Shown: piece after piece, positions 9,267-63,706 of the stretch
How positions within the stretch are numbered: position 1 is the first letter of the stretch
Layout: each line of letters starts with the position of its first letter
Assembly (NCBI GenBank): GCA_048886685.1
Contig: JBHLKM010000009.1
Coordinates: 64,001 to 128,000 of the forward strand
Direction: 5' to 3'
DNA from: Candidatus Hodarchaeota archaeon
GTDB taxonomy: Archaea; Asgardarchaeota; Lokiarchaeia; Sigyniarchaeales; SOKP01
DNA length: 64,000 nucleotides
Position numbers and translations under genes: made by a program
The notes under the pieces: model-generated
Seen by the model: the letters and a program-made list of their open reading frames with translations, nothing else
The model's database searches: none
Told to the model about the DNA's origin: nothing

Positions 9267-9594
9267 TATTCAAAACTCGAGTTAATAAAAATATTAATAA
9301 TATAATCCATTGTACATTAATAAAACTTTTGAAAAAGTTTTAGTGTTTTTTGGTTTATAATATAAAAATTGTTGATATATTTTATTACTACTAAACAATA
9401 AAGTATGTTTATATCTTTTTCTTATTAAAACGTTTAATATTATCTAGGTTCATTATACTAAAAATGAATGATTATCATAAAAATATGGATTTCATAATAA
9501 AATATCAAACTTTCGTTAAAAGTTAAGTGTTCCAAAGTCTTTTAAGGATAACTAGCTTCTTTTTTTATTATCTTAAAAGTGTGAACCAATAAAA

Positions 9595-50567: not shown

Positions 50568-52244
50568 TTAAAATATTTGGGGAGATTGATATTCTCCAAA
50601 TACTTCTCGTAGTACATCACAAATTTCTTGTATAGTAGCGTATGTTTTGACGGTTTCAATCATAATTGGCATAATATTTTCAGAGGAATAAGCAACTTTT
50701 TTTAGTTGATTCAACTTTTCTTTAACGAGACTTTCATTTCGATTTTTCTTTAAATCTTTAAGAGATTCAATTATTCTGTTCTCAAAATCTTTATCGTGTT
50801 TGAATGTTTCTATTTTATGTTCCTCATCAATACGAAAACTATTTACTCCGATTACTTTATCGATACCTTTATCGATTCTGATTTGTTCCAAATATGCGTT
50901 ATTTAGAAGTTCTTGTTGAATGAATGCATTTTCAATAGCTGCTGGCATACCACCCATTTTATCTATTTTTTCAATATATTCCATAGCTTTTTCTTCTAGT
51001 TTATTTGTTAAATATTCGAGATAATAAGAACCACCTAATGGATCAGCAACATCGGCTACACCTGTCTCATATGCAAGCACTTGTTGTGTTCTTATTGATA
51101 ATCTAGCTGAATCCTCAGTTGGCAGTGATAACGCTTCGTCTGCTCCACAGGTATGAAGAGATTGAGTACCTCCCAAAATTGCCGCTAAACCTTGGAGTGC
51201 AACTCGAACAATATTAACTTGAGGTTGTTGGACTGTAAGTGACATTCCTGCTGTGTGTACATGAAATCTTAATCTAAGAGAATTAGGTTTCTTAGCGCCA
51301 AACCGATTTTTCATAACTTTAGCCCATATTCTCCTCGCAGCTCTTAATTTCGCAATTTCCTCAAAAAAGTTGTTATGCGTAGTGAAAAAGAATGATAATC
51401 TTGGAGCAAACTCATCAACATCTATCCCCCTTTTAAGAACCTCATCAACATAAGAAATACCATCAGCCATAGTAAACGCAATCTCTTGGATAGCATTACT
51501 TCCGGCTGCACGCATATGATAACCACATATACTGATTGTATTAAATAGTGGTAGATGCTTAGAACAATATTCTATTATATCTGCTACTAATCTTAAGGAT
51601 GGTTTTGGAGGAAATATATAAGCACCCCTTGCTACAAATTCTTTCAAAATATCATTTTGAACTGTACCCATTAGCTTTTTTGAATCAATTCCCTGTTTTT
51701 CACCAACAGCAATATACATTGCTAAAATAACAGCGGTTGGGGCATTTATAGTCATGCTAGTAGAGACTTCATCTAAAGGTATCCCGTCAAAAACTCTTTC
51801 AAAATCCTTTAAAGAATTTACAGTGACCCCAATTCTCCCTATTTCCCCAATACATATATTATTATCAGAATCATAGCCCATCTGCGTAGGAAGGTCAAAT
51901 GCGACAGAGAGTCCCTTTTGTCCTTGAGATATCAAAAATTTAAATCTATCATTTGTTTTCTCGGCATCAGCAAACCCTCCATACTGTCTCATTGTCCAAA
52001 TTCTACCGCGATACATATTTGGATATACTCCTCGAGTAAAGGGTGGAGTTCCTGGAAACCCTAAATCTTCAATGAAGTCTAAACTTTCAATATCCTCTGG
52101 ACTATAAACTTGTTTTAAGGGTATTCCTGAGGGTGTTTCAAATTTGTCCTTACGTTCACCTCTATCTGTAAATTTAGATAAATTATTTTCTTCCCACTCC
52201 AATCTCTTGTTTTTTATTTTTTCAAGTTCTTTTCTAGAGAACAT
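50568..52244 (-). CDS. Methylmalonyl-CoA mutase, substrate-binding (large) subunit
   Basis: WTMRQY (Tyr specificity residue), QNDILKE..ARG (Arg), GYH, DPLGGSY; no B12-binding domain. Confidence 0.9.
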   Translation of the reverse strand: MFSRKELEKIKNKRLEWEENNLSKFTDRGERKDKFETPSGIPLKQVYSPEDIESLDFIEDLGFPGTPPFTRGVYPNMYRGRIWTMRQYGGFADAEKTNDRFKFLISQGQKGLSVAFDLPTQMGYDSDNNICIGEIGRIGVTVNSLKDFERVFDGIPLDEVSTSMTINAPTAVILAMYIAVGEKQGIDSKKLMGTVQNDILKEFVARGAYIFPPKPSLRLVADIIEYCSKHLPLFNTISICGYHMRAAGSNAIQEIAFTMADGISYVDEVLKRGIDVDEFAPRLSFFFTTHNNFFEEIAKLRAARRIWAKVMKNRFGAKKPNSLRLRFHVHTAGMSLTVQQPQVNIVRVALQGLAAILGGTQSLHTCGADEALSLPTEDSARLSIRTQQVLAYETGVADVADPLGGSYYLEYLTNKLEEKAMEYIEKIDKMGGMPAAIENAFIQQELLNNAYLEQIRIDKGIDKVIGVNSFRIDEEHKIETFKHDKDFENRIIESLKDLKKNRNESLVKEKLNQLKKVAYSSENIMPIMIETVKTYATIQEICDVLREVFGEYQSPQIF

Positions 52245-52269
52245 ATTCTCATTTCCTCCTTAAATTTAA

Positions 52270-52623
52270 TCAATTTGGTGAAAAAACATAATTATATATT
52301 TCTTTCCCATCTAGATCATCACAAATTTTAGTATAGATGGGTTTTAGTTCCATTCCAGTTTTTAAATTTTCTTGAATTGTCAATTGGCCAAGAGCTTTTA
52401 CTCCGTTTTCAAATTCAACAACTCCTAAGGCATATGAAGAATTTTTCCTAAATTCAGCAGGAGGTGCTTTTAAGATTGTAAAAGTAAGGAGTTTACATGT
52501 TCCTGAAGCATTTATATTTTCAAATGTACTATTTTTACATTTCAAACATCTTATATGAGATTTATGCTGTAAATACCCACAGTTTTTACATTTTATCCAT
52601 GTTTCTTTTTCTACTTTTTCCAT
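52270..52623 (-). CDS. DUF35 / ChsH2-like Zn-ribbon OB-fold protein
   Basis: CKNCG...CLKC followed by an OB fold. Confidence 0.85.
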   Translation of the reverse strand: MEKVEKETWIKCKNCGYLQHKSHIRCLKCKNSTFENINASGTCKLLTFTILKAPPAEFRKNSSYALGVVEFENGVKALGQLTIQENLKTGMELKPIYTKICDDLDGKEIYNYVFSPN

Positions 52624-52714
52624 TGTTGATTCATCTTTTCAAAGAAAAATTATTGTAAAATTCTTATTAATAATAATATAAACTCAATAAAATTCATTTC
52701 GGAGAACTTAGTTT

Positions 52715-53266
52715 TTATAATTCTGCTGATAGAGTTTTGAATTTTTTATACAAGGCCTCAATAATTGCGTTAAATGCCTCAATAACGCCATTCCCCGTTT
52801 TAGCTGACGTTATATAATACCCAAGAAAATTATATTTACTTACTATTTCTTGGATATCAGAATCATCAATGTTATCTTCATCAACTAAATCTACTTTATT
52901 TGCGAACAATACAATAGGAATATTTCCACAATATTTTAAAATTTCTTTATACCAATCAGGAATATGATTGAAACTCTCTTCACCAAGTTTGTTTTCTTCT
53001 AGACTATATACAATTATGGCTGCTTCACTTCTCTTATAAAAAGAAGGTCGTAAGAAATGAAAGGTATCTTGTCCTGCTATATCCCAAAATTGTAATTTAA
53101 TTTTGTCCCCATCTATTTCTTTAACATACGTTGATAGTTGAGCCCCAATTGTCTTAATATATTCCTTTTCAAAGTAACTATGTGTAAATTTTTGAATTAA
53201 TGAAGTTTTACCTACCTGCCCGTCACCAATCACGGTGATTTTGAAAATAAAGCTTATATCATTCAT
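52715..53266 (-). CDS. Rab-like small GTPase (cluster paralog 1)
   Basis: GDGQVGKT, TIGAQ, WDIAGQ, NKVD, TSAK. Confidence 0.92.
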   Translation of the reverse strand: MNDISFIFKITVIGDGQVGKTSLIQKFTHSYFEKEYIKTIGAQLSTYVKEIDGDKIKLQFWDIAGQDTFHFLRPSFYKRSEAAIIVYSLEENKLGEESFNHIPDWYKEILKYCGNIPIVLFANKVDLVDEDNIDDSDIQEIVSKYNFLGYYITSAKTGNGVIEAFNAIIEALYKKFKTLSAEL

Positions 53267-53445
53267 AGAATTTTGAATAAAGATCAGAATAATAAGTTAA
53301 ATAAATCTTATATGATGTAAGATTAGATTTATTATGTTATAAAATTTTTGAATATTCTCGTCAATAACCTAAAAGAATCTAGAACAATCAATAATTATCA
53401 AAGCTCAGTAATTCTTCTTTAAACTGAATAATCAATCTTTTAATT

Positions 53446-54003
53446 CTACAGATTATCAGATAATGATTTAAACTTATCATATAACTCATCTATCAATGTA
53501 TTAAATGCTGTAAGTACGCCCTTCCCTGTTTTTGCTGATGTTAAGTAGTACCCCATAAAATTATTCTCTTCAACTATTTTTTTGATAGCTGAATGGTCTA
53601 TAGTATCTTCGTCAACCAGATCAACTTTATTTGCAAATACAACTATCGGAACATCTCCACAATGTTTTACAATTTCCTCATGCCAAGTTGATATGGATTT
53701 AAAACTCTCGTCCCCAAGTTCAGTTTCCTCAAGACTATATACAATAATAGCAGCTTTACTGTTTTTAAAAAAAGAGGGACGTAAAAAGTGAAAAGTATCC
53801 TGCCCCGCTATGTCCCAAAATAATAGTCTGATTTTATCTCCTTTTATTTCCTTATTATACACTGAAAACTGTGCTCCTATTGTCTTAACATAATCCTTCT
53901 TAAATGATCCTTGAGTGAACTTCTTAATAAGGGAAGTTTTTCCAACCATTCCATCACCGATAACCGTTACTTTGAATCGAAACCTACGTCCTTCCTCACT
54001 CAT
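53446..54003 (-). CDS. Rab-like small GTPase (cluster paralog 2)
   Basis: GDGMVGKT, TIGAQF, WDIAGQ, NKVD, TSAK. Confidence 0.92.
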   Translation of the reverse strand: MSEEGRRFRFKVTVIGDGMVGKTSLIKKFTQGSFKKDYVKTIGAQFSVYNKEIKGDKIRLLFWDIAGQDTFHFLRPSFFKNSKAAIIVYSLEETELGDESFKSISTWHEEIVKHCGDVPIVVFANKVDLVDEDTIDHSAIKKIVEENNFMGYYLTSAKTGKGVLTAFNTLIDELYDKFKSLSDNL

Positions 54004-54156
54004 AGAATCTTAAAAGAAATAATTTGTGTATTTATTCTAGTTAAAAAATTATATTTAAACTAAGATCAGTTATTTTTTAATATAAAATTTTGGTTTCTGA
54101 TTAAAATAAACTGAAAAATAGACAATTTTATATTTAAATTAAAAAAAATTAAAAAA

Positions 54157-54192
54157 AAGTTTGGATTATTTGAGATCTTTTAATCCAAACTT
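54157..54192 (-). terminator. 12-bp perfect hairpin followed by U-tracts
   Basis: aagtttggatta-N12-taatccaaactt; A-runs to the left give poly-U on the minus strand. Confidence 0.6.
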
Positions 54193-54273
54193 GAATTTTT
54201 TTGGATTTAAAAGATAATCTCCTATCGAATATTTCCAATCATCTTTTTTCTTCTTTTTCTTCGTTTTTTTCAA
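54166..54273 (-). CDS. Putative Lys-rich micropeptide (35 aa from TTG; start uncertain)
   Basis: MKKTKKKKKKDDWKYSIGDYLLNPKKFKFGLKDLK*; GGAGGT overlaps the TTG and lies 7 nt before an in-frame ACG. Confidence 0.4.
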   Translation of the reverse strand: MKKTKKKKKKDDWKYSIGDYLLNPKKFKFGLKDLK

Positions 54274-54299
54274 CCTCCATTAAATTTTTTGATAACTAA

Positions 54300-54392
54300 T
54301 TATTTTATTATACGATTAATAAACTCCTTATGTTCTTCTAAACCGTTCTTTATCTTAATCCTCTCAATTCTCTCTAATTTTTTGTTTTTCAT
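54300..54392 (-). CDS. Putative micropeptide (30 aa)
   Basis: MKNKKLERIERIKIKNGLEEHKEFINRIIK* with GGGGAGGG 9 nt upstream. Confidence 0.5.
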   Translation of the reverse strand: MKNKKLERIERIKIKNGLEEHKEFINRIIK

Positions 54393-54437
54393 TATTTTTC
54401 GCCCTCCCCTTATCATTTAGATATATATCAAAAAAAT

Positions 54438-54464
54438 GGAGGGGGAAAATTTAGGTCCCCCTCC
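54438..54464 (-). terminator. GC-rich 9-bp hairpin followed by a U-tract
   Basis: ggaggggga-N9-tccccctcc, then ATTTTTTT on the minus strand. Confidence 0.6.
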
Positions 54465-54544
54465 CCCTGATTTTATTTCTCCCTGACTTTTCTACTTCGG
54501 TTTGTCGGATGAATTGAATCAGCGTGAAGATGACAGAATTAATT

Positions 54545-54790
54545 TTAATAATTTCCGAAATTCCTGTAATTTATACTTCTTCTGATGTTCTCTATAGGAA
54601 TTTGTTCTTCTAAATACTTAGGATTATATTTAGCTTTCTTCAATAATTTCAATAAAGCTTTTTTAACTGGTTTCTCCTCTGCTTTTACTCGAACTATTGT
54701 ATAATCTTCTTCAATAGCAGGGAGCTCTTCTAATATAATTACATCTTCTAATACCTCTAGTTCCTTTTTCTTAATTAAAACTTGGACCAT
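54545..54790 (-). CDS. NPxYxEExI-family microprotein A (81 aa)
   Basis: GGAGGTG upstream of ATG 54790; MVQVLI...YNPKYLEEQIPIE. Confidence 0.75.
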   Translation of the reverse strand: MVQVLIKKKELEVLEDVIILEELPAIEEDYTIVRVKAEEKPVKKALLKLLKKAKYNPKYLEEQIPIENIRRSINYRNFGNY

Positions 54791-54832
54791 TTTATAAACC
54801 ACCTCCAATTCATGTTTCTAAACTATTGTAAA

Positions 54833-55087
54833 TTAAAAAACCCTAAAAATATTGAATTTGGAATTAGCAATTATATCTGAGGTATATAATTTTTCTTTTG
54901 TATCTTTTAGTGGAATTACTTCTTCGAAGTATCTAGGATTTTGATTCTTGAATAATTCAAATAGTTCAATTTGTTTTTTAATTTGCTCAATATCTTTTTG
55001 TTCTTCTTTAGAAGTTTTTCCCGAAAGAACTATATATAGATCTTTAAGTTCAATAATGGTATCTTCATTTACTATTACTTGTCTCAT
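54833..55087 (-). CDS. NPxYxEExI-family microprotein B (84 aa)
   Basis: MRQVIV...QNPRYFEEVIPLKD...SKFNIFRVF*. Confidence 0.75.
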   Translation of the reverse strand: MRQVIVNEDTIIELKDLYIVLSGKTSKEEQKDIEQIKKQIELFELFKNQNPRYFEEVIPLKDTKEKLYTSDIIANSKFNIFRVF

Positions 55088-55155
55088 TTTTTTCACACTC
55101 TTTTTTTCCTATAAGATTACTTAGATCAAGGTTTAATTAATAGTTTGATTTCGCA

Positions 55156-55171
55156 AAGTTCAAATGGAATT
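55156..55171. promoter_or_regulatory. Degenerate AACTYY-N4-RRAGTT box
   Basis: AAGTTC-AAAT-GGAATT, 13 nt upstream of a minus-strand TATTAATTAAA. Confidence 0.55.
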
Positions 55172-55313
55172 TAAGACTTGTTTTAGACTTTTATCAACTT
55201 TTCTTAAAAAAAATCTCTGTTTAATATGAGTTTAAATCTAGGTAGTTGCTATAGATTTTAGAGCCTATGAGTAGAATGGTCTAGCAATCGGTAAAGGTTC
55301 AACTCATTAGGTT

Positions 55314-55634
55314 TTAAAAATTTCTTGACCAATATTCCTCGTAAGTTAAATTGTTGGGTATATCTCTATTACCCCTATAAATTCGAGGAACAGCTTTAGA
55401 ATCTATTAATATCTTGATGAATTTATAGTTAGCTAAATGATCGAGAGCATCCTTAAATTGATAATAAGACTTATAATCTTGTACTTTACCCGTGATATCT
55501 ATCAAATCATAATCAAAGAGTAATTGATCAATATTCGGAAATTGATCCTGAAGCCAATTGTCTCTACAATCTTCAATAATTTTTATAGCATATTCAAAGT
55601 TGCTAGAGTGAGTTTTTGAAGAAAAACTTGTCAT
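55314..55634 (-). CDS. Hypothetical protein (106 aa from ATG 55634)
   Basis: MTSFSSKTH...FKDALDHLANYKFIKI...; possible winged-helix pattern. Confidence 0.6.
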   Translation of the reverse strand: MTSFSSKTHSSNFEYAIKIIEDCRDNWLQDQFPNIDQLLFDYDLIDITGKVQDYKSYYQFKDALDHLANYKFIKILIDSKAVPRIYRGNRDIPNNLTYEEYWSRNF

Positions 55635-55778
55635 ATTCGCATAAATGATAAAATACTTTGTTTTTAAGGATTTCAAAAACAGAAAATTTTTATATGAATT
55701 AGTCGAATTACGAAAAGTAAATCTAATCACTAAAATAAATACATAAAAATGAGAGATTAAAAAAATTATTTTATACTT

Positions 55779-55955
55779 CTAAAAAACACTAAAGAGATCA
55801 TATTTAGATCCTACACAAGCATGAATTTGGTCTTTCGCTTCTTTTAGATGGATAGCTTCCTCAAAATATCTTGGGTTTAAATCTCCAAGAAGTGCTTGAT
55901 TTTCTTCAACTTTAGGTCGTTTCATTATCATTATTTTTTGATAAGTTTGGGTCAT
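55779..55955 (-). CDS. NPxYxEExI-family microprotein C (58 aa, not in the ORF track)
   Basis: MTQTYQKIMIMKRPKVEENQALLGDLNPRYFEEAIHLKEAKDQIHACVGSKYDLFSVF*; homologous to B, with a homologous promoter. Confidence 0.8.
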   Translation of the reverse strand: MTQTYQKIMIMKRPKVEENQALLGDLNPRYFEEAIHLKEAKDQIHACVGSKYDLFSVF

Positions 55956-56029
55956 TTTTTATAAACACTTTTTCGGTTTTTTTATTAAGAATAATTAGAG
56001 CAAGGTTTAATATATAGTTTAATTCTATG

Positions 56030-56045
56030 AACTCTGAGTGGAGTC
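56030..56045. promoter_or_regulatory. AACTYY-N4-RRAGTT box
   Basis: AACTCT-GAGT-GGAGTC, 13 nt upstream of a minus-strand TATATATTAAA. Confidence 0.65.
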
Positions 56046-56121
56046 TTAGATTCTATTTAGATCATCCCTTAATTCTCCAGAATTTTACATTTTATACGTC
56101 CAGATATAATGTTCATTTTTG

Positions 56122-56137
56122 AACTCTAATTAGAGTT
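56122..56137. promoter_or_regulatory. AACTYY-N4-RRAGTT box (perfect 16-bp palindrome)
   Basis: AACTCTAATTAGAGTT, 10 nt upstream of the plus-strand TATATAAA of the 56211 gene. Confidence 0.7.
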
Positions 56138-56210
56138 TGGATCAAAATATATAAATAAACCCTTTTCATATTATTATTATAAGTAATATTTATTGGTAAT
56201 TGGATGAATT

Positions 56211-58733
56211 TTGGTTCCATCTTGTAATTATCCCCCTGACGAGATTTTAAATCCTGTAATTGGTAAGCCTAATTATGAGTATATTATTCTGTGGATATTG
56301 AGTAATAATGAAATATGCTCATGGGCAGATTTAAAAGAAAAAGTGAATAGATCAACGCTTTCTAATTATTTACGTGACCTTAAGCGTAATGGATATGTTT
56401 TAAAAAGTGATTTCAATCAATATAAAATCACATCTAAAGGAAGGGAAAGATATTACGAATTAGGACAAGCCAAGAAGGGAGGAAGGAACTTAAGTTTTCC
56501 TCCTAAGGTAATTCTCGAAAAAAGGAATTATGACCATACGATCCTTTGGATGACCTATAACAATAATTACTGTAAGTGGGCAGATTTTCTTGAAGAACCT
56601 CTTTCTATTAATCAATCTTCCTTATCAAAGAATATGAATAAATTAATGGAAAAAAATTTTGTAATAAAAGAAGAAAAGGAATATAGAATTACTCGATTGG
56701 GAAAATCGGAATATTCTAAAATGCTAACCTATTATGATCTAGACAGACAGTCGATTTTAGAAGAAGAAAGCAAAAGAATTTCTGATTTAACACAAAAAAC
56801 ACTAAATTTCTTCGCAAAATTTGAAATTATTGAAAGAGATATTCAATTTCGATTCCTAAATAGTGTTCTAAGGTTAGATTATGAAAAAATTAAAACCGTT
56901 TTAAGAGAGGAGGAGGATTTTCATAAAATACTGCTGTTCCTTTCAATTAATCATCCAAATGATTATCCTAAATATGTATCACCTGAAGAATTCTCTGAAA
57001 AATATGGAATTAAAAAAACTACTCTTGATTATTATATTGATGAAATTGTAGAGAATCAAATTTTTCCAATAAAATTTTTTAAATTGGTGGTGCTCCCAAA
57101 TAAATTCTATTATTTCCAATCAGATGAAAAAGTCGAGATGATGCTTAGGATTATTACAGAGGAGCATATTACAAAGTTTACCTATCTAAATAAGCTTTTT
57201 GAGGGCAAATCAGATTTAATTCTCCCTCTGAATATGAGTTCTACGGTAAACGCTATTTTAGAAGAAGCTTGCCAAAATGTATTTGATGAAGGATTAAAAA
57301 ATTCATTAAGAAAATTATTACCTGAATATATCAATTACTTAGCATACAAAATCGAAAAAGAAAAGAAGTTGGTTGGTGTTTCTGATAAATTGGAAGGAAT
57401 TATTTGGCAGAACATTCCTGAAATAATTCAATCAGACATTTACAAAACTTCTCAATATCAATTTATAAGTGAGAGTGAAATGAATTATTATTTAGATACC
57501 TCAATATTAGAAATATTACAGCCTTACCTAGCTTTCTGGTTTAAGCAGGAAGAGTTAAATTTAAAAATCCAAGAGTACTTAAAATCGAAAGAATATGATA
57601 AGGCTTTAAAATTGGATGAATTAGGTAAGGTTTTTACTTATTCTAAATCGAAGATAAAGAATTTGGATCTCATTATTGTTAAAGGGATTATTCTTTGCCA
57701 TTTGAATAGAAATAGAGAATCGATAGATTTTCTAATGGATAATGTAGATTTATCTATTATTAATAAAGAAGATGAGATATATGCACCATATCTTTTTGTG
57801 TTAGCTTTTTCATATATGACTCTTGGAGATATTAAAAACGCTCTGAATATGGCATATAAAGCAATAGAAATATTTCCTAAAATACCTCTTTCTCATATTT
57901 TAAAGGGACTTGTACTTGGTTATAATAGTATTTATAATTTCGATGCAGAAAAGGCAGATAAAGAAAATGGGATAAGTGATATAGATAAAGCTATTAATTT
58001 AGAATCAAATAAATTCAACAAAGCAAGATATTATCAGTTAAAGAGCCAAATCTTATTAGAATTGAATAACTATGAAAATGCTTTAGAATCGATTGATAAC
58101 GCACTTGAATTAAATCCTAAAACTCTAGATTTGTATAATTCTAAATTTAGGATTTTGAATTATTTTGATAAGTTCTATGAAATAATAGCTATATTGGATA
58201 AATTACTAATTGATTTTCCTGAGTGGGAAAAGAATCTTAAAATTAAAAAAATATACATGCTCAAAGAAATGAAAAATATTGAAGAAGGCCTAGAGATTAT
58301 CAATGAATTAATCGAAAAATATCCTGAAGATAATAATCTTCTTCTTAATAAGATATATTGGTTACAATATTTAGATGAAAAAGAAGAGGTAATAACAACT
58401 ATAGAGAAGCTTATACAAGAAAATCCCAAGGTAGGAATATACCGTGATACTTATGGAGAGATTTTAATGAATTTTGAGGAATATGAAAAAGCCATAAAGG
58501 AATTCTTAAAAACGATAGAATTAGCTAGTGATGATTGGTATATTAATCAAACCTATATAAAGTTGGGAATATGTTATAAGGAACTTGAAGACTATGATTT
58601 AGCAACTGAATATCTTATGAAAGGTCAAGAATATACAAACAAATGCTTTTGTGATCTTGAAACAAAAAGAAGATGGATGGCAATTGTTAGTCTCTATTTG
58701 GCAGAAATTGAACAACTAGAAGCCGATTTTTAA
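56211..58733 (+). CDS. Tandem winged-HTH / TPR-repeat regulator (long form)
   Basis: Two repeats PP..I...NY..IILW...NN..C.WAD...STLS..L..L...G.V......Y.IT..G; third HTH-like segment; C-terminal TPRs (DTYGEIL...EEYEKAI, IKLGICY). Confidence 0.8.
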   Translation: MVPSCNYPPDEILNPVIGKPNYEYIILWILSNNEICSWADLKEKVNRSTLSNYLRDLKRNGYVLKSDFNQYKITSKGRERYYELGQAKKGGRNLSFPPKVILEKRNYDHTILWMTYNNNYCKWADFLEEPLSINQSSLSKNMNKLMEKNFVIKEEKEYRITRLGKSEYSKMLTYYDLDRQSILEEESKRISDLTQKTLNFFAKFEIIERDIQFRFLNSVLRLDYEKIKTVLREEEDFHKILLFLSINHPNDYPKYVSPEEFSEKYGIKKTTLDYYIDEIVENQIFPIKFFKLVVLPNKFYYFQSDEKVEMMLRIITEEHITKFTYLNKLFEGKSDLILPLNMSSTVNAILEEACQNVFDEGLKNSLRKLLPEYINYLAYKIEKEKKLVGVSDKLEGIIWQNIPEIIQSDIYKTSQYQFISESEMNYYLDTSILEILQPYLAFWFKQEELNLKIQEYLKSKEYDKALKLDELGKVFTYSKSKIKNLDLIIVKGIILCHLNRNRESIDFLMDNVDLSIINKEDEIYAPYLFVLAFSYMTLGDIKNALNMAYKAIEIFPKIPLSHILKGLVLGYNSIYNFDAEKADKENGISDIDKAINLESNKFNKARYYQLKSQILLELNNYENALESIDNALELNPKTLDLYNSKFRILNYFDKFYEIIAILDKLLIDFPEWEKNLKIKKIYMLKEMKNIEEGLEIINELIEKYPEDNNLLLNKIYWLQYLDEKEEVITTIEKLIQENPKVGIYRDTYGEILMNFEEYEKAIKEFLKTIELASDDWYINQTYIKLGICYKELEDYDLATEYLMKGQEYTNKCFCDLETKRRWMAIVSLYLAEIEQLEADF

Positions 58734-58741
58734 AAAAACAC

Positions 58742-59284
58742 TTAGGTTAAAACCTTGGATTTATTATACAATTCATTAATAATAATATTAAAAGCCTCAT
58801 GAACACCTTGCCCTGTTTTTGCTGAAGTTAAGTAATATCCTAAAAAACCTTGTTCTTCAACAATTTTTTGAATCGGAGTATCATCCAAATTATCTTCATC
58901 AATTAAGTCGACTTTATTAGCAAAAAGAATTATTGGGATTTCTCCACAGAATTTTTTAATATTCTCATACCAATTGGTTATATGCTCAAAACTTCGTTTA
59001 CCTAACTCATTTTCCTCAAGACTATAAACAATAATTGCTGCTCCGCTTTCCTTATAAAATGAAGGTCGTAGAAATAGGAAATCATCTTGACCGGCTATAT
59101 CCCAGAAGATCAATCGAATCTCATCTCCCTCTATTTCTTTTTCATATTTAGAGAATTGGGCACCTATGGTCTTAACATAATCTTTCTCAAATGAACTCTG
59201 AGTAAACTGTTTAATCAATGAAGTTTTACCTACTTGTCCATCTCCTATGACGGAAATTTTAAATCGAAATTGTGCAGCAGTCAT
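58742..59284 (-). CDS. Rab-like small GTPase (cluster paralog 3)
   Basis: GDGQVGKT, TIGAQF, WDIAGQ, NKVD, TSAK. Confidence 0.92.
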   Translation of the reverse strand: MTAAQFRFKISVIGDGQVGKTSLIKQFTQSSFEKDYVKTIGAQFSKYEKEIEGDEIRLIFWDIAGQDDFLFLRPSFYKESGAAIIVYSLEENELGKRSFEHITNWYENIKKFCGEIPIILFANKVDLIDEDNLDDTPIQKIVEEQGFLGYYLTSAKTGQGVHEAFNIIINELYNKSKVLT

Positions 59285-59507
59285 TTACTTTTTTGGAGAA
59301 ATCACTATTTCATGTTTTATTTAATAGTAGATTAGGTTTTTTGTAATTTAAAATTTTAGTTATTAAAAAAAACCTAGTTGATACAAATTTAGTGATTAAA
59401 TATTAAAAGATTTGAATTTCATTTAATGAAATTAGTTAAATATCAACTAAAATACAATTAAAATTAAAGATTTGATAAAAATTAAAAAAGAAGAATAAAA
59501 AAAGAAT

Positions 59508-59588
59508 TTATTTACGTAAATCCTTAAAAGCCCAATTTTGGAAATGATTATTTATATTTATTAATCCTTTATTCGCATTTTTTCTCAT
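59508..59588 (-). CDS. Putative micropeptide (26 aa, not in the ORF track)
   Basis: MRKNANKGLININNHFQNWAFKDLRK*; GAGGG 7 nt upstream; box-associated promoter. Confidence 0.6.
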   Translation of the reverse strand: MRKNANKGLININNHFQNWAFKDLRK

Positions 59589-59660
59589 TTTTTTTCCCTC
59601 AATAATAGGTTCTTATTAATTTTAATATAGATTGACAACTATATTTAGTTTAACTTCGTA

Positions 59661-59676
59661 AACTCCATGTGAAGTT
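59661..59676. promoter_or_regulatory. AACTYY-N4-RRAGTT box
   Basis: AACTCC-ATGT-GAAGTT, 13 nt upstream of a minus-strand TAAATATA. Confidence 0.65.
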
Positions 59677-59841
59677 CGAATTTAACGCGAAGGGCTTCTC
59701 AGTTTTGTCAGAATTATTTAAAATGAATATGTATTAATATCTTAAAGCTCTTTAATTTTAATCTTGTTGAATGAAGTATCCATACCTTTTTCCCCAATTC
59801 ATCCAATTCCTCTTCACTAAGTATTTAGTTTTTACTGCATG

Positions 59842-59857
59842 AACTTTAACCAAAGTT
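59842..59857. promoter_or_regulatory. AACTYY-N4-RRAGTT box
   Basis: AACTTT-AACC-AAAGTT, about 90 nt before the 59945 gene. Confidence 0.6.
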
Positions 59858-59944
59858 ATATAGTATTAAAAACTATTATACTATAAGAAGACTATAAGAA
59901 TTTAGTATGCTAAACATTAAGAAAACTCTTTCAAAAATGATATC

Positions 59945-61849
59945 ATGAGTCATATAAATTATCCACCTAAAGAAATTTATAATCCTCCCGTATTAGAGAA
60001 AAAAAATTTTGAGCTTATCATTCTTTGGATGCTATATAATAATGAAGAATGCGAGTGGGCTAATTTTACTCAAGAACCCCTTGAACTTCGGTTATCTACT
60101 CTCTCAAAATATCTTTCATTATTAAAGGGGAAGGGATATGCAGAGAATATTTCAAGAGGGCTTTATAAAATTACTTCAGAAGGCAAAAAGAGATATCTTG
60201 AATTATCACAGGCAAAGGAAAAAGAAAGAACTCTAAGCTATCCCCCTGCTATCATTACAAGAAGAAGAAATTATGATCATTGGATTCTTTGGATGGTTTA
60301 TAACAATAACTACTGCAAATGGTCGGATTTTATTGAAGAAAATTCACCTGTAAGAATTAATCAATCATCCTTATCTAAAAATATGAATATATTAATCGAT
60401 AAAGGATTTATAGAAAAAGAAGAGAAGAAATATAGAATCACCCGATCAGGTAAAGTGGAGTATTCTAGAGTATTACAAGAATATGATTTAGATAGACAAT
60501 CAATTTTGGAGGAAGAAAGTAAGCGAATTGAAGAGATTACAATGAAGACTATAAAATTTTTCAATAAATATGAAATTGAAAATAAGGACATACAATTTAG
60601 ATTACTCAACAATATGCTGAAATTGGATTATACCAGGGTTGAAGCAATGCTCACAGATGAACAAGATTTTAACAAAATCTTACTTTTTATCTCAATTAAT
60701 CATCCAAGTCAATATCCTAATTATATTTCTGTAGATGGTTTCTCGAAAATTTATGGAATTAAAGATTCAAAATTGGATTATTATGTTGATGAAATTATTG
60801 AAAATGAGATTTTTCCCGTTAAATTTTTTAAAATAATTGTACAACCAGATGTCCATTATTATTTCCAAGAGAATGAAAGATTAGAAATAATGCTTCGAGC
60901 AATCACAGAAGATCATATCACCAAATTCACATATTTAAATAAATTATTTTCGAGACCATTTGACATAAGAAGTACAGTGGATGATATATTAGAAGATATT
61001 TGTGAGGTATTATTTCACGAGGATTTAAAAGAATCCTTACACAAATTTTTACCAAAATATATTAATTATTTAGCCTATAAAATTGAAGCTAAAGTTGAGC
61101 TGAAAGAGACTTATGATAAATTAGAAGGAATTATTTGGCACAATATGATAGACATATTTGAAACAAGAAATATTGAAGAATTACAAGAAGATTACAGAGT
61201 AGAAATCAAGAAAATTGATAAAAAGATTGAGTCAAATCCAGAGGACCTTGATTTATATAACTTAAAGATAAGAATTTTGATTTATTACAATCAATTCGAT
61301 GAGGTACTGAGCTTATTAGATGAAATGTTAGAAATTTTCCCGAAAGATGAATTAGATGTAAAGATGAAAAAGGCATCTGTATTGAGAAGGATGCAAGATG
61401 TAAGTAAGGGTTTAGAAATAATTAATGAGTTAATTGAAAAATACCCTAAAAACAATGACCTTGTGAGTTATAAAGCTTATTGGCTTCAATATTTAGATCG
61501 AAAGGAAGAATCTCTCAGCATAATTCATGATCTTGTTGAACTTATTCCTGAAAATGGAATGTACCATGACACTTATGGAGAAATTCTAATGTATTTTGAG
61601 GAAAATGAAAAAGCTATAAATGAATTCCTTAAAGCGATAGAATTAGCGGGTGATGAATGGTATATTCATCAAACCTATATTAAGCTAGGAATCTGTTATA
61701 AAGAAGTTCAACAATTGGAACGTGCGCTTGAGTACCTAACTAAAGGGAAGAAATTAACAGAAAAGATTTCAATTGACGCCGAAACTAAACAAAAATGGAT
61801 CACAATTGCGAATCTCTTTCTTTTAGAATTAGAGCAATTAGAAGAATAA
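59945..61849 (+). CDS. Tandem winged-HTH / TPR-repeat regulator (short form)
   Basis: Collinear paralog of 56211-58733 lacking about 200 aa of the TPR region. Confidence 0.8.
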   Translation: MSHINYPPKEIYNPPVLEKKNFELIILWMLYNNEECEWANFTQEPLELRLSTLSKYLSLLKGKGYAENISRGLYKITSEGKKRYLELSQAKEKERTLSYPPAIITRRRNYDHWILWMVYNNNYCKWSDFIEENSPVRINQSSLSKNMNILIDKGFIEKEEKKYRITRSGKVEYSRVLQEYDLDRQSILEEESKRIEEITMKTIKFFNKYEIENKDIQFRLLNNMLKLDYTRVEAMLTDEQDFNKILLFISINHPSQYPNYISVDGFSKIYGIKDSKLDYYVDEIIENEIFPVKFFKIIVQPDVHYYFQENERLEIMLRAITEDHITKFTYLNKLFSRPFDIRSTVDDILEDICEVLFHEDLKESLHKFLPKYINYLAYKIEAKVELKETYDKLEGIIWHNMIDIFETRNIEELQEDYRVEIKKIDKKIESNPEDLDLYNLKIRILIYYNQFDEVLSLLDEMLEIFPKDELDVKMKKASVLRRMQDVSKGLEIINELIEKYPKNNDLVSYKAYWLQYLDRKEESLSIIHDLVELIPENGMYHDTYGEILMYFEENEKAINEFLKAIELAGDEWYIHQTYIKLGICYKEVQQLERALEYLTKGKKLTEKISIDAETKQKWITIANLFLLELEQLEE

Positions 61850-61915
61850 AGCACAAGGATTTTTGGTAACTTAACAGTAAACTTATCAAAATAATATAAA
61901 AAAAGGATAGAGACC

Positions 61916-63706
61916 CTAACTTTTTTCTACTAATTGTTCTAACTCTTCGATTTTGTCAGATAGATAATTAATTCCTTTTTGCCAGAATGAAGCATCCTTT
62001 AAGTTGATACCAATTTCAGATAATATTTCTTCAGGTGTTAATGAACCTCCAACAGAAAGGAGTTTAATAAATTTTGGGACAAATTTTTCTTTTTGCTCAA
62101 GATATAATTGATATATTGAGATTACCAACAGATTAGACATGTTATATGCATACACATAGAAAGGTACTTGTAAAAAATGGTGCACAACAAAACAGTAATT
62201 GGCGTAATCTTCTCTAATGTTACTAATAGAGTTGCCAAACATTAATTCCATTTCTCTAACAAAAGTATCTTTAATTTCTTCTGTTGAGGGTAATTTCTCC
62301 TCCAGTAAATTATGAATACTTTTTTCAAACCTATAGAAAGCATTTTGTCTATGGGAAGTACTGAACTTTGATTCAATGAAATTACTTAACAAAGAAATCT
62401 TTTCTTCTCTCGATAAATTTGTATTCATTAAATGGTCAAAAATTAAAATTTCATTGAAAATTGAGGCAATTTCAGCCATAACCAAAGAAATTCCTATATT
62501 TATGAAGTTTTGATTTTTTAAATTATAATATGCGTGAAATGCATGGCCAAGTTCATGAGATAATGTTCTTAATGAATCGATTGTACCAGTAAAATTTACA
62601 AATACGAACGGATAATGCTTCAGTTTCCCATTGGAACAAAAGGCACCACGATTTTTTCCAATTCTGGGAGTGACATCAATATGATTAGATAAAACCATTC
62701 TTTCTATTATCTCTTTAAATTCTGGAAAAAATCTTTCATCAGCATCTTTAATAAGTTCTAAATTTTCCTTATAGGAATAATTTTTTGTTATTTGACCAAT
62801 CGGGACATAAATATCCGACATATGGAGTTCAGGGAGATTTAAGATTTTTTTCTTTAAGTTGTAATATTTCTCCACGATAGAATAACTTTTTGTGGTTACT
62901 TCTCCTAAAATTTCAACACTCTCATCACTAACTTCATTTTCGAGATTTCTTCGTGATATCGGTGTATTGAAATTCTTTTTTTTGCATTCTAAATCCCAGC
63001 TTTTCAAGGTATTATTAAAAGTATGAGTGAAAATCATTTCATACTCCTTATATTTGGAAACAATTGCACTTAAGGCTCTAAATCGAAGATCTTTATCCTG
63101 GTGGTACATAAAAGAAAAGACCTCTGCTTCAGTTAACTTCCTCATTTTTCCTTCTACTTCAAAATCGAAAATAAAACTGCTTTTTAATTCATTATAAAGT
63201 TTTATGAATGCTTTAGCACCTGTAATATCTTTCATTAAAACTATTTGTTCTTCTTCTTCCGAAAGTTGATGTTTTTTTTTCAATCTGTTAAATTTGAGAG
63301 CATGAGAATAATTGATAAGTTCTGGAGCATTTTTTAACTCGTTAAATTTGTGTTCTGAAATCAAATTCAATTCTAAATTAAAAAACAATAATTTTTCCTG
63401 AAATTTAGCTTTATAATCTTCTATCTTTGAGCGAAATGATTTTACATCATCATTTAATGAGTTAATTGAATATTCCAAACTTGAATAACGATCTAAGTAA
63501 TATATTTGTTCAGATATTTGTTCATATTCCTTATACCATTCTAATAATTGCTTTGGAGTAAGTAAAGGATCCCTTATCTTTCCTTTGACTTTCTTATAAA
63601 AATTTTCGACTGACTTTTCTAATTCTTTAAGATCCTTATCAATTGAAGGATCATCAATGCTTTCGTAGAAGTCGGTTAAATCCCATTTAATGATTTCTTC
63701 TGCCAT
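61916..63706 (-). CDS. pepF: Oligoendopeptidase F (M3B)
   Basis: WDLTD.Y, GK.RGAF, HELGHAFH, AEIASIFNE, HF...FYVYAY. Confidence 0.9.
   Translation of the reverse strand: MAEEIIKWDLTDFYESIDDPSIDKDLKELEKSVENFYKKVKGKIRDPLLTPKQLLEWYKEYEQISEQIYYLDRYSSLEYSINSLNDDVKSFRSKIEDYKAKFQEKLLFFNLELNLISEHKFNELKNAPELINYSHALKFNRLKKKHQLSEEEEQIVLMKDITGAKAFIKLYNELKSSFIFDFEVEGKMRKLTEAEVFSFMYHQDKDLRFRALSAIVSKYKEYEMIFTHTFNNTLKSWDLECKKKNFNTPISRRNLENEVSDESVEILGEVTTKSYSIVEKYYNLKKKILNLPELHMSDIYVPIGQITKNYSYKENLELIKDADERFFPEFKEIIERMVLSNHIDVTPRIGKNRGAFCSNGKLKHYPFVFVNFTGTIDSLRTLSHELGHAFHAYYNLKNQNFINIGISLVMAEIASIFNEILIFDHLMNTNLSREEKISLLSNFIESKFSTSHRQNAFYRFEKSIHNLLEEKLPSTEEIKDTFVREMELMFGNSISNIREDYANYCFVVHHFLQVPFYVYAYNMSNLLVISIYQLYLEQKEKFVPKFIKLLSVGGSLTPEEILSEIGINLKDASFWQKGINYLSDKIEELEQLVEKS

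Follow-up and report, generated by a model that had tools for sequence, protein, structure and literature searches.

The window analysed here is a stretch of 64,000 nucleotides from a Candidatus Hodarchaeota archaeon, a Loki-type Asgard (GenBank assembly GCA_048886685.1, contig JBHLKM010000009.1, positions 64,001 to 128,000 of the forward strand), in which three very short minus-strand genes, designated A, B and C, encode related microproteins. Microprotein A (81 aa plus stop; 54545-54790, open reading frame (ORF) 54548-54790) begins with MVQ at an ATG codon, microprotein B (84 aa plus stop; 54833-55087, ORF 54836-55087) begins with MRQ, and microprotein C (58 aa plus stop; 55779-55955, ORF 55782-55955) begins with MTQ. 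Alignment of the three revealed an invariant M1, Q3 and N-P-x-Y-x-E-E followed by I, and an aromatic C-terminus common to all; in A, a basic amphipathic helix leads into NPKYLEE and then into a tail ending in YRNFGNY. A preliminary description of this DNA, made from the sequence alone, had reported three ORFs of 81, 84 and 58 aa that share an M-x-Q start and N-P-[RK]-Y-[FL]-E-E, together with a terminal SK[FY][ND][IL]FxVF common to B and C; the ORFs are present as described, and our alignment confirmed the common B and C tail. The accompanying statement that one member had been missed by the ORF track is plausible only for C, which at 58 aa lies below a 60-aa cut-off; all of these proteins already stand in public collections as unnamed predicted proteins.

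A site GGAGGTGG (54799-54806) lies 8 nt ahead of the ATG of A and is exactly complementary to the 3' end of the genome's own 16S rRNA, and the Shine-Dalgarno (SD)-like sites of the microprotein genes are complementary to the 16S 3' end. Longer TTG or GTG starts (for A, a TTG start giving 87 aa) are unlikely, because the TTG of A overlaps the GGAGGTGG SD site and because the orthologs likewise begin with M-x-Q. Gene B, upstream of A, is separated from it by 42 nt that contain no promoter, and a G/C hairpin with a T run, kept in five species, follows A (54433-54461, minus strand); B and A therefore probably form one transcript that ends at the hairpin and T run. Gene C is a separate, stand-alone cassette with its own promoter and a T-rich terminator.

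Downstream of A, the minus-strand region 54425-54547 is conserved in five species, with an invariant GGGGGAGGGGG run that pairs with a CCCTCC arm before the T run and with an additional CTGATT...AATCAG outer stem. Such a G/C-rich element is unusual in a genome of 31% GC; it looks like a terminator, yet it is more conserved than a terminator requires. Between C and B lies a further minus-strand ORF of 138 (or about 106) codons (55314-55730). Its only counterpart was detected in the closest relative (83% identity); the ORF has no family match and may have been inserted into the locus recently.

A lineage-specific family of microproteins

A, B and C are genes and not chance ORFs. A profile built from these three ORFs alone retrieved three more paralogs on other contigs of the same assembly (E 6e-9 to 8e-7), showing that the NPxYxEE pattern is not a product of chance, and a subtype profile added a seventh paralog (E 9e-13), which brings the genome to seven family members overall. 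Across the six-frame translation of the 4.4 Mb genome, N[PA][RK]Y[FLY]E[EN] occurs six times, and all six occurrences are family members; mimicry of a motif in a larger protein was rejected on this ground. Beyond the assembly, metagenomes contain orthologs of B with 68-71% identity, and a 30-sequence profile searched against 1.84 billion public protein representatives matched 103 clusters at E <= 1e-3. These clusters consist of proteins of about 40-130 aa, except for one phage fibre repeat and two chimeric gene calls. The long matches were also considered as fusions that might offer a clue to function and were discarded, the tail-fibre repeat being spurious and the other two being the chimeric gene calls.

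Family proteins are 57-90 residues long. In a set of 130 distinct sequences, the core consensus is [LY]-N-[PA]-[RK]-Y-[FL]-E-E-x-I-[PST]-[LI], with the P of the motif replaced by A in 39 of 126 sequences; 90 of the 130 start with M-x-Q, and 105 terminate in Y or F. Pairwise ratios of non-synonymous to synonymous substitution (dN/dS) among orthologs were 0.1-0.3 for A, 0.2-0.5 for B and about 0.25-0.6 for the C type, with 0.27-0.56 for gene C of the window, demonstrating that the family is under purifying selection. Two of the analyses proposed in the preliminary description, a hidden Markov model (HMM) of the three sequences and dN/dS among orthologs, yielded both homologues and purifying selection (dN/dS 0.1-0.6). 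Among the dispersed C-type paralogs dN/dS rises towards 1, and their flanks and coding sequences are about equally conserved, where much better-conserved flanks had been expected. An RNA element in place of a protein was rejected, as no Rfam match was found in 52000-62000 and the codon-level selection points to a protein.

The family falls into three subtypes, A, B and C, to which the three window genes belong respectively. A-type proteins (about 84 aa) start with a strand-like stretch, continue into a basic amphipathic helix and the motif, which carries either P or A, and end in Y-R-N-Y-G-x-[YF]. They comprise two groups: A1, to which gene A of the window belongs, lies in the locus that also contains small GTPase genes, and A2, which carries a C-x-x-x-x-C pair, is directly divergent to a gene for an 850-aa regulator. 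B-type proteins are also about 84 aa, and C-type proteins (57-75 aa) have an acidic N-terminal half and LLGDL ahead of the motif; the B and C types have an S-K-F-N-x-F-x-x-[FY] tail in common. Dispersed C-type copies stand in unrelated metabolic contexts. One of them, paralog E, lies directly downstream of a gene (L005:1818-3134, minus strand) whose 438-aa product combines a MalT-like TPR region with an uncharacterised domain at the C-terminus.

The copy number of C-type cassettes is highly variable, with 11 family matches on several contigs of one genome (G011), and in another genome (G017:C209) the cassette of paralog D (L004) was not detected next to the copy that best matches its neighbour gene. 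The variable copy number and the missing D cassette suggest that whole promoter-ORF-terminator units are gained and lost, with the orthology of this multi-copy neighbour gene uncertain.

No member of the family had a significant match in Pfam, NCBIfam, PHROGs, PADLOC or PDB sequences, so that the clear match to a known unrelated family that would have spoken against the preliminary description did not appear. The lone row among PDB sequences was Caprin-2 (E 0.64), which is noise; scores in the ESM Atlas reached at most 0.78, with nothing above noise, and its ACT-like structural rows are based on a poor model. AlphaFold2 (AF2) predicted no globular fold for B (30 sequences; mean predicted local distance difference test score (pLDDT) 57) or for A (56 sequences; mean pLDDT 65). 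In the model of A, only residues 41-73 are confident (pLDDT 78-87), forming a helix, an NPKYLEE loop and a second helix, while the first 40 residues were not modelled; Foldseek returned no match to this model. Neither a signal peptide nor a membrane segment was found in any of the 130 sequences (top 15-residue hydropathy 1.8, median 0.72). Because such segments are lacking and AlphaFold2 is confident only in the core, the proteins look cytoplasmic and largely disordered, with a single docking element and an aromatic C-terminus as their conserved parts. The earlier wording of a conserved motif in a variable scaffold is a correct description of the alignments, the selection data and the AF2 model. 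The family is lineage-specific and was previously unnamed.

Divergent wHTH-TPR regulators and a shared operator

On the plus strand, divergent from C, lies a gene (56211-58733) for an 840-aa protein with two winged helix-turn-helix (wHTH) domains and a C-terminal tetratricopeptide repeat (TPR) array (Pfam HTH_45, HTH_34 and TPR_1/2/12), a candidate regulator and partner of the microproteins. Its 634-aa paralog is encoded by a second wHTH-TPR gene at 59945-61849. The convergent neighbour of this second gene is an M3 oligoendopeptidase F gene (61916-63706, minus strand), an arrangement conserved in at least four other species.

The phyletic range of both partners was assessed in 300 evenly sampled genomes of the phylum (Asgard), 67 from the window's own Promethearchaeia family (f1) and 233 from 29 other families; these are mostly fragmented metagenome-assembled genomes, the window's own assembly shows 8% contamination, and the presence and absence counts vary with how sensitively the profiles detect proteins this short. 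The A-type profile matched 38 of the 67 genomes of the family, in four genera, versus none of the 233 elsewhere, with one further match in a small sister family; the B and C types are narrower, being restricted to some members of one genus. A search with the regulator's first 410 residues matched 55 of the 67 versus 1 of the 233 (a weak match), and the regulator is present in all 39 microprotein-positive genomes.

The two genes are also physically linked. For at least 39 of the 61 A-type matches in the sample, a regulator gene lies divergently on the opposite strand within 4 kb, a lower bound, since the count draws on 150 of the 202 regulator matches and short contigs are numerous. In 22 of these pairs the gap measures 160-255 bp. 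The divergent pairing was observed in four genera and in the sister family, and it recurs at a second locus of the same genome, where A2 stands 256 bp from the 850-aa regulator paralog. Gene order at the main locus runs from the regulator through C, B, (X) and A1 to the Ras-like GTPase(s), where X is a second microprotein type described below, and it is kept in 8 of the 10 loci examined. No clear rule connected the length class of the regulator with the microprotein subtype.

The two partners carry the same promoter element. A palindrome, RACTYY-N4-RRAGTT, is located 6-10 bp upstream of the TATA box in microprotein and regulator genes alike. In the regulator genes it is perfect and stands 6-9 nt upstream of their own TATA boxes: AACTCT-AATT-AGAGTT (56122-56137, plus strand), conserved in genome G017, lies 6 nt upstream of the TATA box of the 840-aa wHTH-TPR gene, and AACTTT-N4-AAAGTT (59842-59857, plus strand) lies upstream of that of the second. 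The promoter of C (56004-56063, minus strand) has a box resembling the B recognition element and TATA box (BRE/TATA; 56004-56020), an imperfect operator, GACTCC-N4-AGAGTT, 9 nt upstream of it (56030-45), and two TCTAAR direct repeats upstream of the operator. This C-type layout, comprising the TCTAAR repeats, GACTCC-N4-AGAGTT, a gap of 8-10 nt and a strong BRE/TATA-like box, was found in 12 genes of 8 genomes, with the ATG about 62 nt beyond the box. Upstream alignment of B orthologs placed the promoter of the B-A unit at 55130-55190 (minus strand), where a BRE/TATA-like box is combined with an upstream element related to the C type and a degenerate operator. A2-type genes have one or two tandem operator copies.

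The palindrome pattern RACTYY-N4-RRAGTY occurs six times in the window versus 0.39 expected, and four of the six matches fall in the two divergent intergenic regions; the matches at 9324 and 17628 were treated as chance because neither a TATA box nor a family micro-ORF follows them. Genome-wide, only nine sites combine the palindrome with a TATA box at the right distance: four drive C-type genes, three drive other micro-ORFs, and two are the two strands of one regulator gene's palindrome. In orthologous intergenic regions the half-sites are kept and the 4-nt spacer varies. A site directly upstream of the BRE/TATA element is the usual binding place of archaeal activators. Since the wHTH-TPR genes adjoin the palindrome and the site precedes the regulators' own genes as well, we infer that the wHTH-TPR proteins are its binders.

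Two Ras-family GTPase genes and further micro-ORFs complete the locus. The first GTPase gene (53446-54003, minus strand; Pfam Ras, E 5e-41) lies downstream of the microprotein genes, a position that is syntenic in 8 of 10 loci, and the second lies at 52715-53266; each of the two is preceded by a promoter of its own that lacks the operator. A second microprotein family, the X type, is represented in the window by a 35-aa micro-ORF (54166-54273, minus strand) with the tail LLNPxKFxFGLKDLK. X-type proteins are 31-90 aa long and have an invariant W-K-x-S ... L-[NH]-P-x-K-[FY]-x-F-G-[LI]-[KR]-[DN]-L-K C-terminus; they occur in 22 of the 23 species of the genus and in none outside it, and in most species the X-type ORF lies about 24 nt upstream of the A1 gene. 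Besides the window copy, examples include one on G000 C2 (approximately 80594-80683) and one at L013:1223-1423, among others, and short X-type versions are divergent to orthologs of the second regulator gene. Homology of this LNPxKF family with the NPxYxEE family was considered and rejected (hhalign probability 0.1).

A third type, Y, comprises two 26-aa micro-ORFs that start with M-[KR]-K and end with [FY]-[KR]-D-L-x-K, one neighbouring the second regulator module in the window (59508-59588, minus strand; operator at 59661-59676 in the operator-TATA layout) and one near 80780 on the minus strand of G000 C2. Each is located behind a perfect operator-TATA unit, the C2 copy being followed by a short X-type ORF, and the Y type may consist of deletion derivatives of the X type. 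On G000 C5 (approximately 253501-253680, plus strand), an operator-TATA unit drives a 24-aa ORF with G-Y-N-P that belongs to no recognised family.

Proposed circuit and rival explanations

Collectively, the shared operator, the divergent adjacency and the matching phyletic range make it highly probable that the microproteins are real proteins belonging to the regulon of the wHTH-TPR regulators. They are probably the regulators' cognate targets and perhaps also their ligands. In the mechanism that we favour, a wHTH-TPR protein would bind the palindrome upstream of the BRE/TATA element and from there drive its own gene and the microprotein genes, the dispersed C-type copies included. The microprotein might then fold onto the regulator, most likely onto the TPR superhelix, via the helix-NPxYxEE-helix core and/or the aromatic C-terminus, and modulate the regulator to which it is bound, closing a feedback loop. 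Such a loop would be the equivalent, inside the cell, of a peptide/TPR-receptor circuit, or else an activator paired with its anti-activator. TPR arrays commonly bind short linear motifs and C-termini, and binding back to the regulator is the most likely mode of action. We hold this full mechanism, in which the regulators control the microprotein genes and the microproteins in turn modulate the regulators, tentatively and at somewhat less than an even chance. Among other roles, the preliminary description had proposed ligands or anti-activators for the TPR proteins; comparative genomics favours this proposal, with binding to the regulators as a predicted step, through phyletic range, divergent adjacency and operator.

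Several points weigh against the feedback mechanism. Co-occurrence and adjacency fit a regulator-target pair without feedback binding equally well, and a single docking mode is not obvious, because A-type proteins have a basic helix ahead of the motif and C-type proteins an acidic one. Regulators and microproteins are not matched one to one in each genome (four versus seven in this one), some regulator paralogs have neither a microprotein gene nor the operator alongside, and 18 regulator-positive genomes have no detectable A-type gene. The evidence is comparative throughout, and the genomes compared are all close kin, so their counts are not independent.

In one alternative, the microproteins are products of the regulon that the wHTH-TPR proteins switch on under some condition and that act elsewhere, for instance as small modulators of ribosomes, membranes or enzymes, with no binding to the regulator. 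The operator and the adjacency require just a regulator-target relation, the same operator drives several other micro-ORF families, and the C-type copies are scattered over unrelated metabolic contexts, with 11 family matches in one genome. We nevertheless regard this alternative as unlikely, if well worth keeping in view: a TPR sensor domain calls for some protein or peptide as its ligand and no other is evident, the tight divergent pairing at about 200 bp across genera and at two paralogous loci is more typical of cognate partners, and no candidate target is indicated. The microproteins might also regulate the Ras-family GTPases or serve as their effectors, as guanine nucleotide dissociation inhibitor (GDI)-, GTPase-activating protein (GAP)- or guanine nucleotide exchange factor (GEF)-like proteins or as effector peptides, with the wHTH-TPR protein as the transcriptional arm. 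The conserved order of regulator, microprotein(s) and Ras-like GTPase(s) in 8 of 10 loci agrees with this, as does the A1 gene that directly follows the GTPase gene in some species. However, the A2-type loci, the locus in the sister family and the dispersed C-type copies all lack a GTPase nearby, the window GTPase genes have operator-free promoters of their own, and the synteny is confined to one family of close relatives. The microproteins also lack a Roadblock, longin or other known GTPase-regulator fold; for the Roadblock/LC7/MglB fold (alpha/beta, about 100-120 aa), Pfam gave no match, the AF2 models have no beta-sheet and Foldseek returned nothing. We therefore consider a direct role at the GTPases rather improbable, and the earlier suggestion of GTPase effectors fits one of the two locus types but neither the A2-type loci nor the dispersed C-type copies, which have no GTPase nearby.

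A secreted precursor whose processed peptide is re-imported and sensed by the TPR regulators would amount to RRNPP-type quorum sensing in an archaeon. The receptor with helix-turn-helix (HTH) and TPR domains, the divergent small gene, the intervening palindrome and the conserved C-termini match the Rgg/SHP or PlcR/PapR layout, and the M3 oligoendopeptidase gene is conserved next to that of the second regulator. Yet the 130 sequences contain no signal peptide or hydrophobic stretch, the proteins of 57-90 aa conserve an internal core of 35 residues and not a short tail, and the locus has neither an exporter nor Opp genes, all of which makes this explanation very unlikely and leaves the earlier idea of processed precursors unsupported. 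Least probable of all, to a degree that we regard as close to negligible, is a toxin or antitoxin component of a toxin-antitoxin or defence module. Small, fast-evolving, multi-copy genes and the dN/dS near 1 of the C-type paralogs would be in keeping with such a role, but there is no conserved partner gene of toxin size, the only consistent neighbour being the large regulator, and PADLOC, PHROGs and Pfam gave no match. Nor is there a ribbon-helix-helix (RHH), AbrB, HTH or Phd fold, the AF2 models consisting only of two helices around the motif. The antitoxin-like role raised in the preliminary description thus finds neither a toxin partner nor a DNA-binding fold in the small proteins.

The favoured feedback mechanism can be extended to a version in which the microproteins are intracellular ligands of expanded wHTH-TPR receptors that also read the state of the neighbouring Ras-like GTPases. 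We rate this extension as doubtful, though a genuine prospect. If true, it would constitute an Asgard-specific circuit in which small G proteins, TPR receptors and encoded peptide ligands jointly set transcription, and the first peptide/TPR-receptor transcription circuit described in archaea. To our knowledge, Asgard archaea encode many eukaryote-like small GTPases and solenoid proteins, almost nothing is known of their partners and regulation, and most lineages cannot be grown. Should the microproteins prove to be ligands, they would represent a genetically encoded peptide-sensing transcription circuit in archaea and provide a handle on the role of one clade of Asgard Ras-like GTPases. The locus offers a compact and testable system, with a defined operator, large wHTH-TPR regulators and several families of tiny proteins as constant neighbours, all of them amenable to expression in E. 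coli. For annotation, even the minimal reading has consequences, as genuine genes of 26-90 codons, equipped with strong regulatory signals, occur here and go unnamed in public records. Our search of a literature library found no description of this module.

Comparison with known systems

With regard to type II toxin-antitoxin systems, no co-transcribed toxin was found, the neighbours being microproteins, the regulator and GTPases with no PADLOC match, and the small proteins have no DNA-binding fold according to Pfam and NCBIfam. The literal N-P-x-Y string, here in an Asgard archaeon, recalls the eukaryotic NPxY/NPF sorting motifs recognised by PTB and EH domains. In this family, however, the motif occurs in soluble microproteins and not in the tails of membrane proteins, and its P is exchanged for A in almost a third of the sequences (39 of 126). 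Neither PTB (PF00640) nor EH (PF12763) domains were found in the genome, by a weak search that gave no match in control genomes either. The likeness to sorting signals is a resemblance only.

GTPase modules such as the actinobacterial conservons (CvnA-D) and MglA/MglB also combine a Ras-like GTPase with small accessory proteins and a helix-turn-helix-type component. They differ from the present locus, which encodes no Roadblock/LC7 protein and no sensor kinase and whose microproteins also occur without a GTPase neighbour.

The closest parallels in layout are the RRNPP systems of Firmicutes and their phages (Rgg/SHP, PlcR/PapR, NprR/NprX, ComR/ComS and AimR/AimP). There, as here, one protein combines a DNA-binding domain with a C-terminal TPR array, the small gene adjoins the gene for that protein, often divergently, and lies behind a palindromic operator in the common intergenic region, and the small proteins diversify quickly around a conserved part; the adjacency holds in the window and for at least 39 of the 61 A-type genes. 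The regulators differ in having two winged helices (HTH_45 and HTH_34) in place of an XRE-type HTH, with no sequence match to RRNPP families. The small proteins, at 57-90 aa, are hydrophilic with an internal conserved core and carry no export signal, no hydrophobic leader or segment being found in the 130 sequences. The host is an archaeon with BRE/TATA promoters, and the locus contains no Opp or exporter genes.

In proposed action, the microproteins resemble intracellular small proteins that antagonise TPR or HTH regulators, such as the phage paratox Prx, which binds ComR, and the TraM/TraR pair, in which a cytoplasmic protein of roughly 60-80 aa binds a transcription factor, as may be the case here. 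There is no similarity in sequence or fold to these antagonists, and the small gene in our locus is a conserved chromosomal partner of the regulator that carries the regulator's operator. The module works like the RRNPP systems in its layout and resembles paratox-type antagonists in its proposed action, while being a member of neither group.

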